From a virus (taxonomy: Duplodnaviria; Heunggongvirae; Uroviricota; Caudoviricetes): 9,560 bases of DNA. Positions 4,486 through 9,560 of this stretch are shown piece by piece; positions within the stretch are counted from its first letter, which is position 1, and each line of letters opens with the position of its first letter. Position numbers and translations under genes: made by a program. Where the stretch lies: positions 1 through 9,560 of IMG/VR virus record IMGVR_UViG_2529292985_000013, one strand, 5' to 3'. Below the pieces are notes generated by a model, which did not search any database, had not been told where the DNA came from, and saw only the letters and a program-made list of their open reading frames with translations.

Positions 4486-4517
4486 GTGCCTGATCCACTA
4501 ACTCCTGGAGGTTTCTT

Positions 4518-4769
4518 GTGTCAGATCGAAATATAGCAGCTAAAAGCCAGGAAGAGCGAGACAAGGTGAACGTAGACCTTGCCGCCAGCGGCGTTGCTTA
4601 CAAAGAACGGCTGAATATACCTGTGATTGCAGAGCAGGTGGCCCGTGAGCAACCGGAAAACCTGCGCGCCTATTTCATGGAACGGCTACGGCACTACCGG
4701 CAGTTAAGCCTCCAGTTGCCAAAAGGGAGCGATCCGGTGTATCAGAACGAGGATGCACCAAAAAAATAA
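4518..4769 (+). CDS. hot: Homologue of DNA polymerase III theta subunit (HolE-like; P1 Hot-like)
   Basis: GTG start with SD GGAGG 7 nt upstream. The segment [43 protein letters not shown] closely parallels E. coli HolE ([43 protein letters not shown], recalled). Confidence 0.85.
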
Positions 4770-4854
4770 CGGCAAGATGGGGGAGAAATGTGATTAGCCC
4801 CCAGCGTTGCGCGCCTACAAATCCCGCTTTCACAAACTATGCCTTTTCAATGTA

Positions 4855-4874
4855 TACTGTATAAATAAACAGTA
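4855..4874 (+). promoter_or_regulatory. LexA (SOS) box overlapping a sigma70-like promoter for the humD-like gene
   Basis: TACTGTATAAATAAACAGTA is a perfect CTGT-N8-ACAG SOS box, nearly identical to the E. coli umuDC operator (recalled). It overlaps -10 TATACT (4853-4858); -35-like TTCACA at 4829-4834 (18-nt spacer); 18 nt upstream of the ATG at 4893. Confidence 0.85.
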
Positions 4875-4892
4875 TCATTGAGGTAAAACGCT

Positions 4893-5282
4893 ATGGGCTT
4901 CCCTTCTCCTGCGGCGGATTATGTTGAAAGCCGAATTTCTCTTGATCAGCAACTAATCAGGCATCCATCAGCAACCTACTTCATGCGGGCAGCTGATAGC
5001 CATCACCGTGAGGGAATATTGCAGGGTGCTTTGCTGGTGGTTGATTCCTCGCTTACTCCGGTTGATGGTTCTCTGCTTGTGTGCGCTATGGAGGGTGAAT
5101 ATCGCATAAAGAGATACAGGAAGTATCCGCGCCAGCACCTGGAGGATTTAAGCACCGGGAGGAAAGAGGCGTTACCAGTGGATGACGATGGATGCACGGG
5201 GAGTAATGCTGTTTTTGGTGTGATCACTCATGTCATCAATGATGTCCGAAGTGGGGAATTTGACGATTGTCCGGTGATTTAA
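4893..5282 (+). CDS. humD: UmuD' mimic: S24 peptidase-family UmuD homologue lacking the N-terminal arm (P1 HumD-like)
   Basis: Protein begins MGFPSPAADYVE, matching E. coli UmuD from Gly25 (first residue of processed UmuD'). An in-frame TAA at 4884-4886 precludes a longer N-terminus. Ser (ADSH) and Lys (RIKR) of the UmuD dyad are retained. Confidence 0.9.
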   Translation: MGFPSPAADYVESRISLDQQLIRHPSATYFMRAADSHHREGILQGALLVVDSSLTPVDGSLLVCAMEGEYRIKRYRKYPRQHLEDLSTGRKEALPVDDDGCTGSNAVFGVITHVINDVRSGEFDDCPVI

Positions 5283-5317
5283 GCTGCAAAGTGCTGGTGC
5301 TTTATACCTGTGAAGTT

Positions 5318-5346
5318 TATAGTTGTGTACACATAACGAGTACACG
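5318..5346 (+). promoter_or_regulatory. phd-doc promoter/operator region with tandem palindromic sites
   Basis: Perfect palindrome TGTGTACACA (5324-5333) and imperfect CGAGTACACG (5337-5346), 13 bp centre to centre, next to -10-like TATAGT (5318-5323), just upstream of the phd SD. Consistent with Phd/Doc autoregulation of P1 phd-doc (recalled). Confidence 0.6.
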
Positions 5347-5354
5347 AGGTGTTT

Positions 5355-5576
5355 ATGCAATCCATTAACTTCCGTACCGCGCGCGGCAACCTTTCTGAAG
5401 TGCTCAACAATGTTGAAGCCGGGGAAGAGGTTGAAATCACCCGCAGAGGCCGAGAGCCAGCAGTAATTGTCAGCAAGGCTACTTTTGAAGCCTACAAAAA
5501 AGCGGCGCTGGATGCTGAATTTGCATCCCTGTTTGACACCCTGGACTCCACCAACAAGGAACTGGTTAACCGATAA
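5355..5576 (+). CDS. phd: Phd/YefM-family antitoxin (prevent-host-death)
   Basis: ATG at 5355 with SD GAGG 6 nt upstream (track ORF starts at an upstream GTG). The 73-aa product [56 protein letters not shown]... matches P1 Phd as I recall it. Stop TAA overlaps the doc ATG (TAATG). Confidence 0.9.
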
Positions 5577-5956
5577 TGAGGCATATATCACCGGAAGAAC
5601 TTATTGCGCTTCATGATGCGAATATAAGCCGCTACGGCGGCCTGCCGGGAATGTCAGATCCGGGTAGGGCAGAGGCCATTATCGGGAGAGTTCAGGCCAG
5701 AGTTGCCTACGAAGAGATCACCGACCTTTTCGAAGTCTCCGCCACCTACCTGGTAGCTACGGCGAGAGGGCATATATTCAATGATGCCAATAAGCGTACC
5801 GCGCTAAACAGTGCGCTGCTATTTCTACGCCGTAACGGCATACAGGTATATGATTCTCCCGTGCTGGTGGAACTTGCGGTGGGGGCCGCAACTGGTGAAA
5901 TCCCCGTATCTTCAGTAGCGGAAAAACTACGTGAATTATTTGGTTCCAATATTTGA
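5576..5956 (+). CDS. doc: Doc toxin (Fic-fold kinase, death-on-curing)
   Basis: 126 aa coupled to phd. Contains the Doc-type Fic motif [11 protein letters not shown] (HxFx[DN][AG]NKR). Length and sequence match P1 Doc as recalled. Confidence 0.9.
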
Positions 5957-5960
5957 AAAG

Positions 5961-5984
5961 AAGCCCGCTCAACCAGGCGGGCTT
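5961..5984. terminator. Hairpin between convergent transcription units (doc on +, leftward operon on -), probably bidirectional
   Basis: GC-rich 8-bp stem AAGCCCGC (5961-5968) / GCGGGCTT (5977-5984), 8-nt loop. On the - strand it is followed by CTTTTC (better U-tract); on the + strand a T-run appears only further downstream. Confidence 0.55.
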
Positions 5985-6039
5985 CCTACTATCACTCAAT
6001 GATTTTTTCTGCTGTCAGCCAGCTAATTCGGTGATGTTT

Positions 6040-6840
6040 TTAGGCGTCAGCATCCTCCGCTACCTCTGCTTCAACATCAGCCACGGCTTCATCGGACGGT
6101 TCTTCTTTGGCCTGCTCTGCAATCGCCGCACGGCATTTGGCCCTTGCTGTGGCGATTGCTTCAGCACGCACATCATCAGGAATCATTGACGTGATATACA
6201 TATCCAGTTCTTCGGCGCGGAACACTGTTTGGTCCAGATATTCGCGTAGCATCCAGGTAAATTCGAAATCACACGCGATAATCTCTGCGCTACCTTCTGC
6301 ACCATTTGGGAAATGAATAAAAGCCTGTTTAGCCAAACCGATAACACGACATGCGGTTGCCAAAACAGCGGCAACCAGGTTTACATTTTCACACGCTACG
6401 GGCTGATTAACGCCGGAGATTACTCCATTTAACTGTCGGTTATATGGAAGGTAGTTTGAGATGCGTTCTACGCGCCATGTGCCAGTCAGGCTGCCATTCT
6501 TAAAGATAATTGGTGTAACGGATAGCCCAAGCTCGCGTATAAGTCGTTGCGCTATAGCAGGATCATTAAACATGTCTAATGCTACACATTCGAAAGACTG
6601 TGCAAGGGTAAACAGTTCTTCCAGAGAGTAGTCTTTGCCCCTGGCGGTGATGTAACGATGAACGCCGCTTTCTGCATCACTCCATATAGCTACGCCATGC
6701 TCTTCATTCAGCTCTTCATTAAAGCCGAGATACGTCATGATAGTACGTTCAATCGTGTCAAACGGCAGTGACATGTCGGCGTTAACAGCCACCAGCAGGC
6801 CATTACGCAAGCGGTATTGAATTGCTTTAGTATTTTCCAC
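6040..6840 (-). CDS. Hypothetical protein, 266 aa, with strongly acidic Ala/Glu/Asp-rich C-terminal tail
   Basis: Long ORF with GTG start at 6840, 6 nt after the upstream stop, SD-like GGAG 9 nt upstream. No recognisable catalytic motif (no P-loop, no HxH). C-terminal ~40 aa are low-complexity acidic (EEPSDEAVADVEAEVAEDADA). Confidence 0.7.
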   Translation of the reverse strand: MENTKAIQYRLRNGLLVAVNADMSLPFDTIERTIMTYLGFNEELNEEHGVAIWSDAESGVHRYITARGKDYSLEELFTLAQSFECVALDMFNDPAIAQRLIRELGLSVTPIIFKNGSLTGTWRVERISNYLPYNRQLNGVISGVNQPVACENVNLVAAVLATACRVIGLAKQAFIHFPNGAEGSAEIIACDFEFTWMLREYLDQTVFRAEELDMYITSMIPDDVRAEAIATARAKCRAAIAEQAKEEPSDEAVADVEAEVAEDADA

Positions 6841-6846
6841 GTTAAA

Positions 6847-7509
6847 TCACTCCACTACAAACCAGTCACATGCCAGCAAGTCGCCTACAGAAGGCAACCA
6901 CGGAACAACTACACCTTGTGCATTTTTTAAGGCGAAATAAGCACCATACGGAACGAGATCGCCGGGGAAATATCCCTTAATGGCTTCCATTCGTGCCGGG
7001 TACTGTCCTTCAGGAACCAGCCAGCAGAATTGGTTTTCGCCGTTCCACCCGCGCCGGGCAACTTTCTTGCCATCCTTCAGCCACATCAGCGCGTCAGAAA
7101 AGTCGGCTGCTTCAAGGTCGATTTCTTCTTGTAGAGTAGCGATACCGCCAGCAGAAATAGTTACGTCCCTGGCTGTAATGAATGTCACCCCATTGTGACC
7201 TTCAATGCTGAGCGATACCCCATTTTCGGAGGCGTCGTTAACCCGGCTATAGCATTTTTCAAATGCTTTCTCTGGCACATAGACCAGATAGCCATTTTCA
7301 GCAGTGACGAGATATCCTCCTATTTGCGGTCGGAATTTTTCCAAGAACACACCATCAACACGAAGCGTCATTCCTTTTGGCTCAACGACTTCGATACTGC
7401 CAAAAATGGGCGCATAAGCTTTGCCGACAATAACAATATCTTTGATTTTCGATGCCCGAATGATGCTGTGGCATTTGTATTTGGGGAACACCTGAAAAGT
7501 GCTGACCAT
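6847..7509 (-). CDS. Two-domain protein, 220 aa: N-terminal ~135-aa domain of unknown function fused to a C-terminal DUF2829/Tad2-like domain
   Basis: ATG with SD AGGAAGG upstream. The C-terminal ~85 aa (FSDALMWLKDGKKVARRGWNGENQFCWLVPEG...VVVPWLPSVGDLLACDWFVVE) fit my recollection of the DUF2829 pattern (ALxxLKxGKKVxRxGWNG ... WxPSxxDLLAxDW), the family of Thoeris anti-defence Tad2. Confidence 0.75.
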   Translation of the reverse strand: MVSTFQVFPKYKCHSIIRASKIKDIVIVGKAYAPIFGSIEVVEPKGMTLRVDGVFLEKFRPQIGGYLVTAENGYLVYVPEKAFEKCYSRVNDASENGVSLSIEGHNGVTFITARDVTISAGGIATLQEEIDLEAADFSDALMWLKDGKKVARRGWNGENQFCWLVPEGQYPARMEAIKGYFPGDLVPYGAYFALKNAQGVVVPWLPSVGDLLACDWFVVE

Positions 7510-7523
7510 AATCCTTCCTCTAC

Positions 7524-8018
7524 TTAAAACTTTGCGTACTGAAGCGGTGTACGCTTGATTTCAACGCGGTCTTCCGATGTGCTACCAAAGCCACCAGCGC
7601 CTCGCTCTGTTTCATCGAGTTCATCAACTTCTACCAGCGATACCGGTTCAACACGCTCAAAAATGCCTTGCATGACCGCCATTCCTGGCTTGAGGCAAAC
7701 GCCTTCACCACCGGGATCTGTAATCAGTTTTGCCATGATTTCACCGCGATAATCGGAGTCGATAATTCCTACGCAGTTAGCCAGGCGAGTATGTTTTTTG
7801 CAGCCCAATCCGGAACGCGGATAGAGTTTCAGACACCAGCCGGGCGGGATCTCCATAGCCAGTCCGGTGTACACCCACCAGCTTGAGGAAATTGCACCAT
7901 TGCTATCGACACATGGTTTTATTTCAACAGCCTCAAAATCCATCGCCGCCGATCCGGAGGTGGCATAAGCTGGAAGTTTTGCTGCCGGATGTAGGCGTTT
8001 CACTTTTACGTAAATCAT
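7524..8018 (-). CDS. dut: Trimeric dUTPase homologue (deoxyuridine triphosphatase) with divergent motif IV and short C-terminal extension
   Basis: ATG overlaps the upstream stop (ATGA). Motifs: I PAYATSGSAAMDF, II PRSGL, III GIIDSDYRGE, V ERGAGGFGSTS. Motif IV reads GMAVMQ where E. coli Dut has GERIAQ (Arg replaced). About 15 extra residues follow motif V. Confidence 0.85.
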   Translation of the reverse strand: MIYVKVKRLHPAAKLPAYATSGSAAMDFEAVEIKPCVDSNGAISSSWWVYTGLAMEIPPGWCLKLYPRSGLGCKKHTRLANCVGIIDSDYRGEIMAKLITDPGGEGVCLKPGMAVMQGIFERVEPVSLVEVDELDETERGAGGFGSTSEDRVEIKRTPLQYAKF

Positions 8019-8491
8019 TGTTTTTTAGCTCTCTGCGTGAAGGTGTAAACCCGACGTTTGATATGTGGAACGGTAGGAACAGGAATACAGGAACTTTCAA
8101 TAACTCCTTGCTCCTCCAGCGATCGCACCGCCCGCAAGAACTGCGACGTGTCGCCGCCAAACTGGCGGGCATAGGTGCTGCCGTTATGAAGTATTTGAGC
8201 TATTACCCGAGCTTTTGTCTGGCTGTCACGATATGCGAATAGCCGCACGGCCTCTTCTGGCGCAATCGATAACTGATAGCCTTTACCGGCACGGTGTCGA
8301 ATGAATCCATGCGCCAGTAGGTTTTTGAGTTCGTTACGAGTGCGAACAGATCCGTAATCCAGGAAGTGTGGATTGATAACGACTGGCTTAAACCATTCCG
8401 TAGGTGCTTTAGCTAATAGAGCTAACAGCTTCCCGGACAATCCTGGATAGGAAGACGGGTAACAATTCAGAGATGGGTAATAAGTTTTCAC
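8015..8491 (-). CDS. Hypothetical protein, 158 aa, possible winged-helix DNA-binding segments; no internal Met
   Basis: GTG start overlapping the upstream stop (GTGA), preceded by AGGGGG. The protein has no internal Met, so a non-ATG start is obligatory. Segments LLALLAKAPTEW...RTRNELKNLLAHGFIRH and STYARQFGGDTSQFLRAVRSLEEQGVIES look like HTH/winged-helix recognition regions (inference). Confidence 0.6.
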   Translation of the reverse strand: MKTYYPSLNCYPSSYPGLSGKLLALLAKAPTEWFKPVVINPHFLDYGSVRTRNELKNLLAHGFIRHRAGKGYQLSIAPEEAVRLFAYRDSQTKARVIAQILHNGSTYARQFGGDTSQFLRAVRSLEEQGVIESSCIPVPTVPHIKRRVYTFTQRAKKQ

Positions 8492-8844
8492 CGACGCCCC
8501 CTTGCCGGATATCGACCTGCATTAGTATCCGGTGCAATAAAGCCGGTAGTGGGGCGAGTGAAAGCGAGATTAATCTTCTCGACCATAGTGCGATAATTTT
8601 CCTGATAGTGGGCCAGGAGTTTTTCGGCGGCAATGATGGTTACTTTCCGGACGTAGCTTTCTGCTTCCTCCAGATTTCGCCAGTTTTTTTCGAGGGTAAA
8701 CACAGGGACGGCCTCAAGCCCGGTCATGATGCCGAATACAACGACAGCATGACTGTTCTTAACACCAGCGGCGAAGGTTACGGTGTAACCATCCACCGTG
8801 AAGCGTCTTGATTCCGTGATTTGACTCTGCAAAGCACCCTCCAA
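8488..8844 (-). CDS. Small hypothetical protein, ~114-118 aa, first gene of the leftward operon
   Basis: Frame is open only from TTG at 8844 (in-frame stop 6 codons further upstream); no ATG is available. A second TTG at 8832 sits 5 nt after a GGAGGG SD-like sequence and may be the true start. Function unknown. Confidence 0.5.
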   Translation of the reverse strand: MEGALQSQITESRRFTVDGYTVTFAAGVKNSHAVVVFGIMTGLEAVPVFTLEKNWRNLEEAESYVRKVTIIAAEKLLAHYQENYRTMVEKINLAFTRPTTGFIAPDTNAGRYPARGRR

Positions 8845-8905
8845 AATAGGCGAGGGTACTTTACAGCAAAGATATCAATCTAAAAAGATGTGTTAGAAAT
8901 TTAAT

Positions 8906-9560
8906 TTACGAATCCATCAAGCGGCTATTAGCCCCCACAGACACACCGCCACGGCGCAGATACCGCATAAGTGTTTCCGGTTTCTTCCAGGTTCCTTCCT
9001 GCATGATCTCCACCATAGACACCTGCTTTTCAGCCATATCGATAGCGGCCCCGACACGAGCACTATGCCCGGTCCACGTCCGGTATCTCCCTTTGTTTGG
9101 CGCGGCATCCCTTTTATTCAGCAACACCCAGGCGTCGCTGAATATTTTCTCCATTGCAGGTGCAGTAAGGGGCGTTGTCGTAATCCTGGCCTTATTGCTA
9201 CGGTGTATCGGCGGGAACAGCACCGCGTCAGGATGTTCACGAAGCCCGGAAACATCCAGCCAGTCATTCAGCACAGCAGTAGTGCGACGGGAAAGCACCT
9301 TATCAAGCCCGGCGGCGGTCGTTATTGTCTTCGTGTGTGAAATATGTAGCGTGACAGTGTCACCTGTTTGGTCCAGATCTCCTACACGAATACGCGAGAT
9401 TTCCGACATACGCATCAGCGTATTGTATGCAACAAAGAGAAAAGCCCGGTTGCGCTGGTCCACCAGCCGTTCTGACCTGGACAGCAGGACGTCGAGCAGT
9501 TTCAGGTCGTCCCACCGCAACGGTATAGCCTGGCCTGTTCGCTCGCCTTTTTCCGTTGCC
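8906..9560 (-). CDS. Cre-family tyrosine recombinase, C-terminal catalytic part; 5' end beyond the window
   Basis: Frame stays open to the window edge upstream of the track's TTG at 9520. Translation aligns with P1 Cre (recalled) over the catalytic domain: RAFLFVAYNTLMRMSEISRIRV vs RNLAFLGIAYNTLLRIAEIARIRV, GHSARVGAA (His/Arg box), and conserved Trp/Tyr (TWKKPETLMRYLR). Roughly 45-50 percent identity by eye, so it is not P1 Cre itself. Confidence 0.85.
   Translation of the reverse strand, partial: ATEKGERTGQAIPLRWDDLKLLDVLLSRSERLVDQRNRAFLFVAYNTLMRMSEISRIRVGDLDQTGDTVTLHISHTKTITTAAGLDKVLSRRTTAVLNDWLDVSGLREHPDAVLFPPIHRSNKARITTTPLTAPAMEKIFSDAWVLLNKRDAAPNKGRYRTWTGHSARVGAAIDMAEKQVSMVEIMQEGTWKKPETLMRYLRRGGVSVGANSRLMDS

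Follow-up and report, generated by a model that had tools for sequence, protein, structure and literature searches.

The gene under study lies in a window of 9,560 nt (9.56 kb), which is the whole stretch of DNA that was analysed. On the + strand, the window contained hot, a homologue of the DNA polymerase III theta subunit (4518..4769; Pfam DNA_pol3_theta, E=3e-33; annotated in RCS47 and P1), the antitoxin gene phd (5355..5576; Pfam PhdYeFM_antitox), and the toxin gene doc (5576..5956; Pfam Fic/DOC), the latter two being annotated in P1, P7, and RCS47. Between hot and phd, an open reading frame on the + strand (4893-5282) extended from an ATG at 4893 to a TAA at 5280-5282 and encoded a product of 129 amino acids. 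The hot-humD-phd-doc neighbourhood was common to the window, P1, P7, RCS47, and D6, and a humD-phd-doc cluster has been described as common to P1-like phage-plasmids (PMC9603915). The distal part of the window harbored, on the minus strand, a dUTPase gene (7524-8018; Pfam, E=1e-13) as well as a partial gene (8906-9520) that encodes the C-terminal part of a Cre-like tyrosine recombinase. The stretch from 7714 to 9560, which covers most of these two genes, shared 99.2% identity with the dre region of D6 (AY753669). At the DNA level, positions 4700-5400 were 95-97% identical to vB_EcoM-813R1, RCS47, JL22, P1, SJ46, and P7, in which the gene is annotated as humD or UmuD-like. The best match to the whole window was plasmid pIso00270_02 (95% coverage, 98.8% identity), and the best among named phages was D6 (77% coverage). 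These whole-window matches, together with the D6-type dUTPase/Dre end, indicate that a D6/P1-like phage-plasmid is the source of the window, which is located near the lox/recombinase end of a D6-type genome. The minus strand also contained an open reading frame of 220 amino acids (6847-7509) with a C-terminal Tad2-like domain (Thoeris anti-defence 2, PF11195/DUF2829; E=2e-22), which is a candidate anti-defence gene of the phage-plasmid; its counterpart in D6 is shorter (441 nt). No RNA element was found in the window with Rfam at gathering thresholds.

The coding sequence at 4893..5282 was assigned to humD on the basis of Pfam, PDB, and NCBIfam matches and its identity to P1 HumD. The product matched Pfam Peptidase_S24 (PF00717) with 36.1 bits against a cut-off of 23.3, and a HMMER search against PDB recovered the solved UmuD' structures 1umu and 1i4v (E~1e-23; E=3e-23 for 1umu_A). 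It matched the NCBIfam equivalog NF051876 ("HumD family translesion DNA polymerase"; cut-off of 120 bits) over positions 1-129 of 129 with 216.1 bits, whereas E. coli UmuD, used as a control, scored 98.7 bits and thus fell below the cut-off. Conversely, the window protein scored 87.4 bits on the UmuD model NF007621, which is below the cut-off of that model (110 bits). The protein was 100% identical to WP_000506731.1 from the E. coli plasmid pIso00270_02, 97.7% identical to P7 HumD, 96.9% identical to P1 HumD, and 93% identical to the D6 homologue, and it shared 44% identity with UmuD of E. coli MG1655 across 115 aligned residues (MAFFT). The four substitutions relative to P1 HumD (K90R, Y101C, C103G, and A118V) map to the variable loop or its vicinity and to the residues just ahead of the C-terminal tail; therefore, a functional difference from P1 is conceivable. 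An earlier reading made from the sequence alone (hereafter, the sequence-only reading) had proposed that the product is a counterpart of P1 HumD, and this was borne out by the level of identity to P1 HumD, the full-length match to NF051876, and the shared neighbourhood. The alignment with UmuD and P1 HumD that it had suggested as a check also paired Gly2 of the product with Gly25 of UmuD. Two further readings, a peptidase with active self-cleavage and a repressor resembling LexA, were rejected because the protein lacked a DNA-binding domain and a cleavage site and scored 28 bits on the LexA model, whose cut-off is 111.

The same register was obtained in two ways. In the MAFFT alignment with MG1655 UmuD, Met1 of the window protein was placed on Cys24, Gly2 on Gly25, Ser36 on Ser60, and Lys73 on Lys97, and in the HMMER comparison with PDB, the partner of query residue 2 was residue 25 in full-length UmuD (8gmt_B) and residue 1 in UmuD' (1umu_A). 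The N-terminal arm GFPSPAADYVE was identical in the window protein and UmuD', and the UmuD-type arm with its Cys24-Gly25 cleavage site was absent. An N-terminal extension is impossible because an in-frame TAA stop is located at 4884..4886 (+), 9 nt before the ATG. A Shine-Dalgarno-like GAGG, read from the sequence and kept in relatives, was found at 4880..4883 (+), likewise 9 nt before the ATG. No counterpart of UmuD residues 1-24 was detected in the three frames of 4770-4892, nor by tblastn across the whole window. The claims that the product begins at the equivalent of UmuD Gly25 and that an upstream in-frame start is excluded by the TAA thus both hold, with no arm-like coding sequence upstream.

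Upstream of the gene, the sequence TACTGTATAAATAAACAGTA (4855..4874, unstranded) was identified as a LexA (SOS) box. It showed two mismatches to the 20-nt LexA consensus TACTGTATATATATACAGTA and was the only match within three mismatches in the window; none of 200 shuffles gave such a match, and none was expected by chance. Box quality was judged by counting mismatches to the consensus, and the umuDC operator of E. coli MG1655 (TACTGTATATAAAAACAGTA) served for comparison; this operator likewise agreed with the consensus at 18 of 20 positions. This equal score suggests that the box is a tight one of the umuDC kind and not an early-induced one. The sequence-only reading had described the box as perfect, which is correct for the CTGT-N8-ACAG core but not for the full consensus (18/20). 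The only sigma-70-like match in positions 4500-6100 was TTCACA-18-TATACT (4829-4858; 10 of 12 positions, with an 18-nt spacer), which provides the predicted humD promoter with a -35 hexamer TTCACA at 4829..4834 (+), found as the same sequence in RCS47 and D6, and a -10 hexamer TATACT at 4853..4858 (+). According to these consensus matches, the LexA box overlaps the -10 hexamer of the predicted promoter. Among close relatives on viral contigs, a CTG-N10-CAG box was located 38-39 nt before the ATG in all 78, each with both the CTG and the CAG triplets; variation was mostly confined to the central spacer and affected the flanking bases in a few copies. The box was also found at an equal distance from the ATG in P1, P7, RCS47, D6, and pIso00270_02, and that of P1 differed from that of the window by one central base (ATGAAC in P1, ATAAAC in the window). 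A LexA site is annotated in the P1, P7, and phiKO2 records; in P1 (RefSeq record), the 20-mer carries the label "LexA binding site in the regulatory region of lxr and humD," and in P7, the label of this site is "regulation of humD expression." In addition, humD has been reported as a LexA-regulated SOS gene (PMC9603915). From its near-identity to P1, we infer that the window copy would be under SOS control as well.

The regions flanking humD differed among related elements. P1 contains a divergent lxr gene between hot and humD that shares the LexA box, whereas lxr was absent in the window, in which hot ended 123 nt before humD, as in RCS47. Upstream of about -50, the sequence occurred in at least three unrelated flavours (P1 and P7 with lxr; RCS47, D6, and the window with hot; and pIso00270_02), which suggests that the conserved module begins at the promoter and the box and that a recombination boundary is located just upstream of the humD promoter. 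The D6 region is itself a mosaic: hot is annotated at only 147 nt, the annotations leave 11 nt between hot and humD, the LexA box is intact and placed inside the annotated hot ORF, and an extra ORF of 423 nt (orf109) is located between humD and phd. Just past the hot stop codon of the window, a GC-rich hairpin (GGGGGAG...CCCCC, 4777-4803) without a T run was observed, which might serve to end or to stabilise a transcript in the interval that separates hot from the humD promoter. The spacer from humD to phd (5283-5354) showed no terminator-like site, and its folding gave only the phd operator and promoter palindromes; SOS-driven read-through from humD into the phd-doc addiction operon is conceivable. 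Unlike the window, N15 and phiKO2 carry an annotated terminator directly after their HumD homologue. A tblastn search of the 9.56-kb window with E. coli UmuC returned only short hits (E>=0.05), in agreement with the earlier statement that no umuC follows the gene, whose downstream neighbours are phd and doc.

The Ser60/Lys97 dyad positions were retained in the window protein (Ser36, with its codon at window positions 4998-5000, and Lys73), but the GDSM motif read ADSH. Across the family, the former S24 active site is drifting: the residue equivalent to Ser60 was Thr in 43 of 121 sequences, the preceding residue was freely variable, and the equivalent of Lys97 was Met in HK639. Such drift would be expected of proteins that no longer need self-cleavage. 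The degraded motif and the frequent loss of the nucleophile could also be the marks of an inert remnant, that is, a umuD truncated at its 5' end that was left behind by a broken umuDC operon and has no selected function, and the absence of a umuC partner in the window as well as the finding in a CRISPRi screen that P1 humD is non-essential for lytic growth (PMC10695390) point in the same direction. However, several features of the family speak against this reading. A relative was encoded in 462 viral stretches, the ORF was intact in 78 of 80 close viral loci, and most of the 120 database representatives encoded an intact product of 127-130 amino acids; 102 of these 120 began with M-GFPSP, with the ATG placed exactly one codon before the Gly. 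Among the close relatives, an in-frame stop was located 9 or 15 nt upstream of the ATG in 76 of 78, and phd was found within 900 nt downstream of humD in 71 of 78. The LexA box, the Shine-Dalgarno sequence, and the C-terminal tail were all conserved, and the loss of the nucleophile is what would be expected once a protein need not cut itself and is no sign of a dead gene. Because of this family-wide conservation, an inert remnant is hardly credible.

In a survey of 80 bacterial genome loci together with phage loci, three features set the HumD class sharply apart from true UmuD: its start position, the absence of umuC, and a conserved C-terminal tail. In true UmuD loci, the ATG was usually located 24 codons before the Gly, the protein body typically comprised 115 or 116 residues and ended like ...KAMR, umuC usually followed directly downstream, and the LexA box usually lay approximately 105-112 nt before the Gly codon. 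On the other hand, the HumD-class loci, which comprised P1, N15 gp26, phiKO2 gp23, HK639 gp28, and loci of Citrobacter, Acerihabitans, and Enterobacter, started one codon before the Gly, contained no umuC within 2.5 kb, and encoded a C-terminal extension ending in ...EFDD[CTN]P[VC][ILM].

Comparison with individual systems placed the window protein closest to P1 HumD (P1_gp103, YP_006569.1; McLenigan et al. 1999, J Bacteriol 181:7005), which is also 129 amino acids long, starts at the equivalent of Gly25, has its box 38-39 nt before the ATG, and is followed by phd-doc with no umuC. The orphan UmuD'-like proteins of other temperate phages (N15 gp26, phiKO2 gp23, and HK639 gp28) share with the window protein an M/V-GFPSPA start, an upstream LexA box, the lack of umuC, and the tail GEFDDCPV[LM], but they are only 65-71% identical to it and carry Thr in place of the Ser60 equivalent. 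Their neighbours also differ and include tail fibre genes with either sopAB partition genes or integrase, and dinI in phiKO2. E. coli UmuD/UmuD', an accessory subunit of pol V (PDB 1umu, 1i4v, and 1ay9), resembles the window protein in its S24 fold, the GFPSPAADYVE arm, the Ser and Lys dyad positions, and an 18/20 LexA box; in contrast, UmuD carries a 24-residue arm that is removed by RecA*-stimulated self-cleavage, forms an operon with umuC, and ends in ...KAMR without the acidic tail. SOS-controlled UmuD-type accessory subunits are also known from mobile elements, including MucA, RumA, ImpA, and SamA (PMC7092418; PMC11541004). According to their descriptions in the literature, these are set apart from the window protein because they are full-length, need cleavage, and are encoded in an operon with their own UmuC-type polymerase.

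In the alignment, the C-terminal tail of the window protein, GEFDDCPVI (residues 121-129; 5253..5279, +), was a feature of the HumD class alone and was missing from UmuD. Residues 122-129 read EFDDCPVI and conform to the class motif EFDDCPV[ILM], which is a criterion found in this analysis and not a published one. Each of the tail positions 122 to 128 was at least 89% conserved among the 120 database representatives, and in the surveyed loci, the tail co-occurred with the pre-processed start and the absence of umuC and was found only in such homologues. In the AlphaFold2 prediction, which was based on an alignment of 32 sequences and yielded one usable model of five (mean pLDDT of 68.8, compared to approximately 42 for the others), the beta core was confident (approximately residues 24-97 and 105-120), whereas the N-terminal arm (1-23) and the tail (121-129) were of low confidence, with the pLDDT of the tail below 50. 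The end of HumD, GEFDDCPVI, resembles the tip of E. coli SSB, MDFDDDIPF, although this likeness is partial: the Pro stands one position off, and the HumD sequence ends in I, L, or M instead of F. It is possible, albeit doubtful, that the tail (...R-S-G-E-F-D-D-C-P-V-[ILM]-COOH) is a docking peptide that imitates the SSB C-terminal tip (M-D-F-D-D-D-I-P-F-COOH). If this were true, the phage-made UmuD' would gain its own route to SSB-binding replication and repair proteins or to stalled forks, and HumD would be more than a plain UmuD' mimic. In any case, UmuD' has nothing equivalent to this conserved tail, a hint that HumD interacts in ways that are not explained by imitation of UmuD' alone.

The features of the locus are consistent with the following mode of action. 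In an undamaged lysogen, host LexA bound to the box that overlaps the -10 hexamer would keep humD off. Upon DNA damage, LexA would be cleaved and HumD would be made directly in the UmuD' form. Methionine aminopeptidase removes the initiator Met before Gly, and because Gly is the next residue here, Met removal would probably leave the same N-terminus as that of RecA-cleaved UmuD'. HumD would then dimerise and combine with UmuC into a hybrid translesion polymerase of the pol V type that would skip the slow, RecA*-dependent self-cleavage of UmuD; as the window has no umuC of its own, the partner would be the UmuC of the host. The sequence-only reading had expected host pol V activity to be primed as soon as SOS is induced. 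Only the delay caused by UmuD self-cleavage would be bypassed, and the timing was overstated because derepression of host UmuC and activation by RecA* would still be needed. Host UmuC must be derepressed from its own LexA box, its stability also applies, and pol V needs RecA* for activation. In the work of McLenigan et al. from 1999, overexpression of HumD reportedly made recA430 lexA(Def) cells mutable again and restored the UV survival of delta-umuDC recA718 cells; the protein is also said there to dimerise and to bind UmuC and RecA filaments. In the same work, HumD was reportedly poorly expressed from its own context and complemented well only at high copy number, so that its natural contribution to mutagenesis may be small. 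In the P1 RefSeq record, the note on humD reads "DNA repair; functionally complements E. coli UmuD'"; the same reading of HumD has been stated elsewhere (PMC7092418; PMC9603915). Given the near-identity of the window allele to P1 HumD, we infer that it would be active and share this UmuD' function.

Alternatively, the main role of HumD might be to modulate replication or SOS proteins of the host to the advantage of the phage-plasmid instead of serving a mutagenic polymerase. It might, for example, form heterodimers with host UmuD and thereby cancel the UmuD2C replication checkpoint or send UmuD to degradation, or its conserved tail might engage pol III subunits, RecA*, or SSB partners. Such a role would fit the survey, in which the HumD class was always orphan, without umuC, and it would fit the position of humD beside hot, whose product likewise mimics an accessory subunit of a host polymerase. 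It would also fit the divergent pairing of the phiKO2 homologue with a homologue of dinI, a modulator of the RecA filament, at one LexA site, as well as a predicted flexible, SSB-like tail that UmuD' does not need and that is conserved at least as well as the rest of the protein. However, the likeness to the SSB tip covers part of the motif only, the nearly perfect conservation of the arm GFPSPAADYVE suggests that UmuD'-type contacts were kept, complementation of UmuD' is noted in the P1 record, and the 1999 work reportedly found both complementation and binding to UmuC. We therefore consider a mainly modulatory role to be improbable. Very probably, the gene is humD, carried by a D6/P1-like phage-plasmid, and represents an allele of the experimentally characterised P1 HumD with the pol V-type general mode of action.

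As a discovery, the locus carries little weight. NCBI maintains a model for the HumD family, and the P1 literature and public annotation already cover the gene, its truncation, the LexA site, and the dependence on host UmuC; humD has been described since the 1990s, and the window copy is an ordinary allele in its usual context. The present analysis adds the identification of the window as part of a D6/P1-like phage-plasmid, the retention among the close relatives of the LexA box (78/78) and of the pre-processed start (in-frame stop in 76/78), and the sharp separation of the HumD class from true UmuD. The conserved acidic tail is its only mildly new point. D6/P1-like phage-plasmids are common in Enterobacteriaceae and some of these carry resistance genes; therefore, an SOS-switched supply of UmuD' is relevant to the stress-induced mutagenesis of their hosts, a point that has already been made in the literature.
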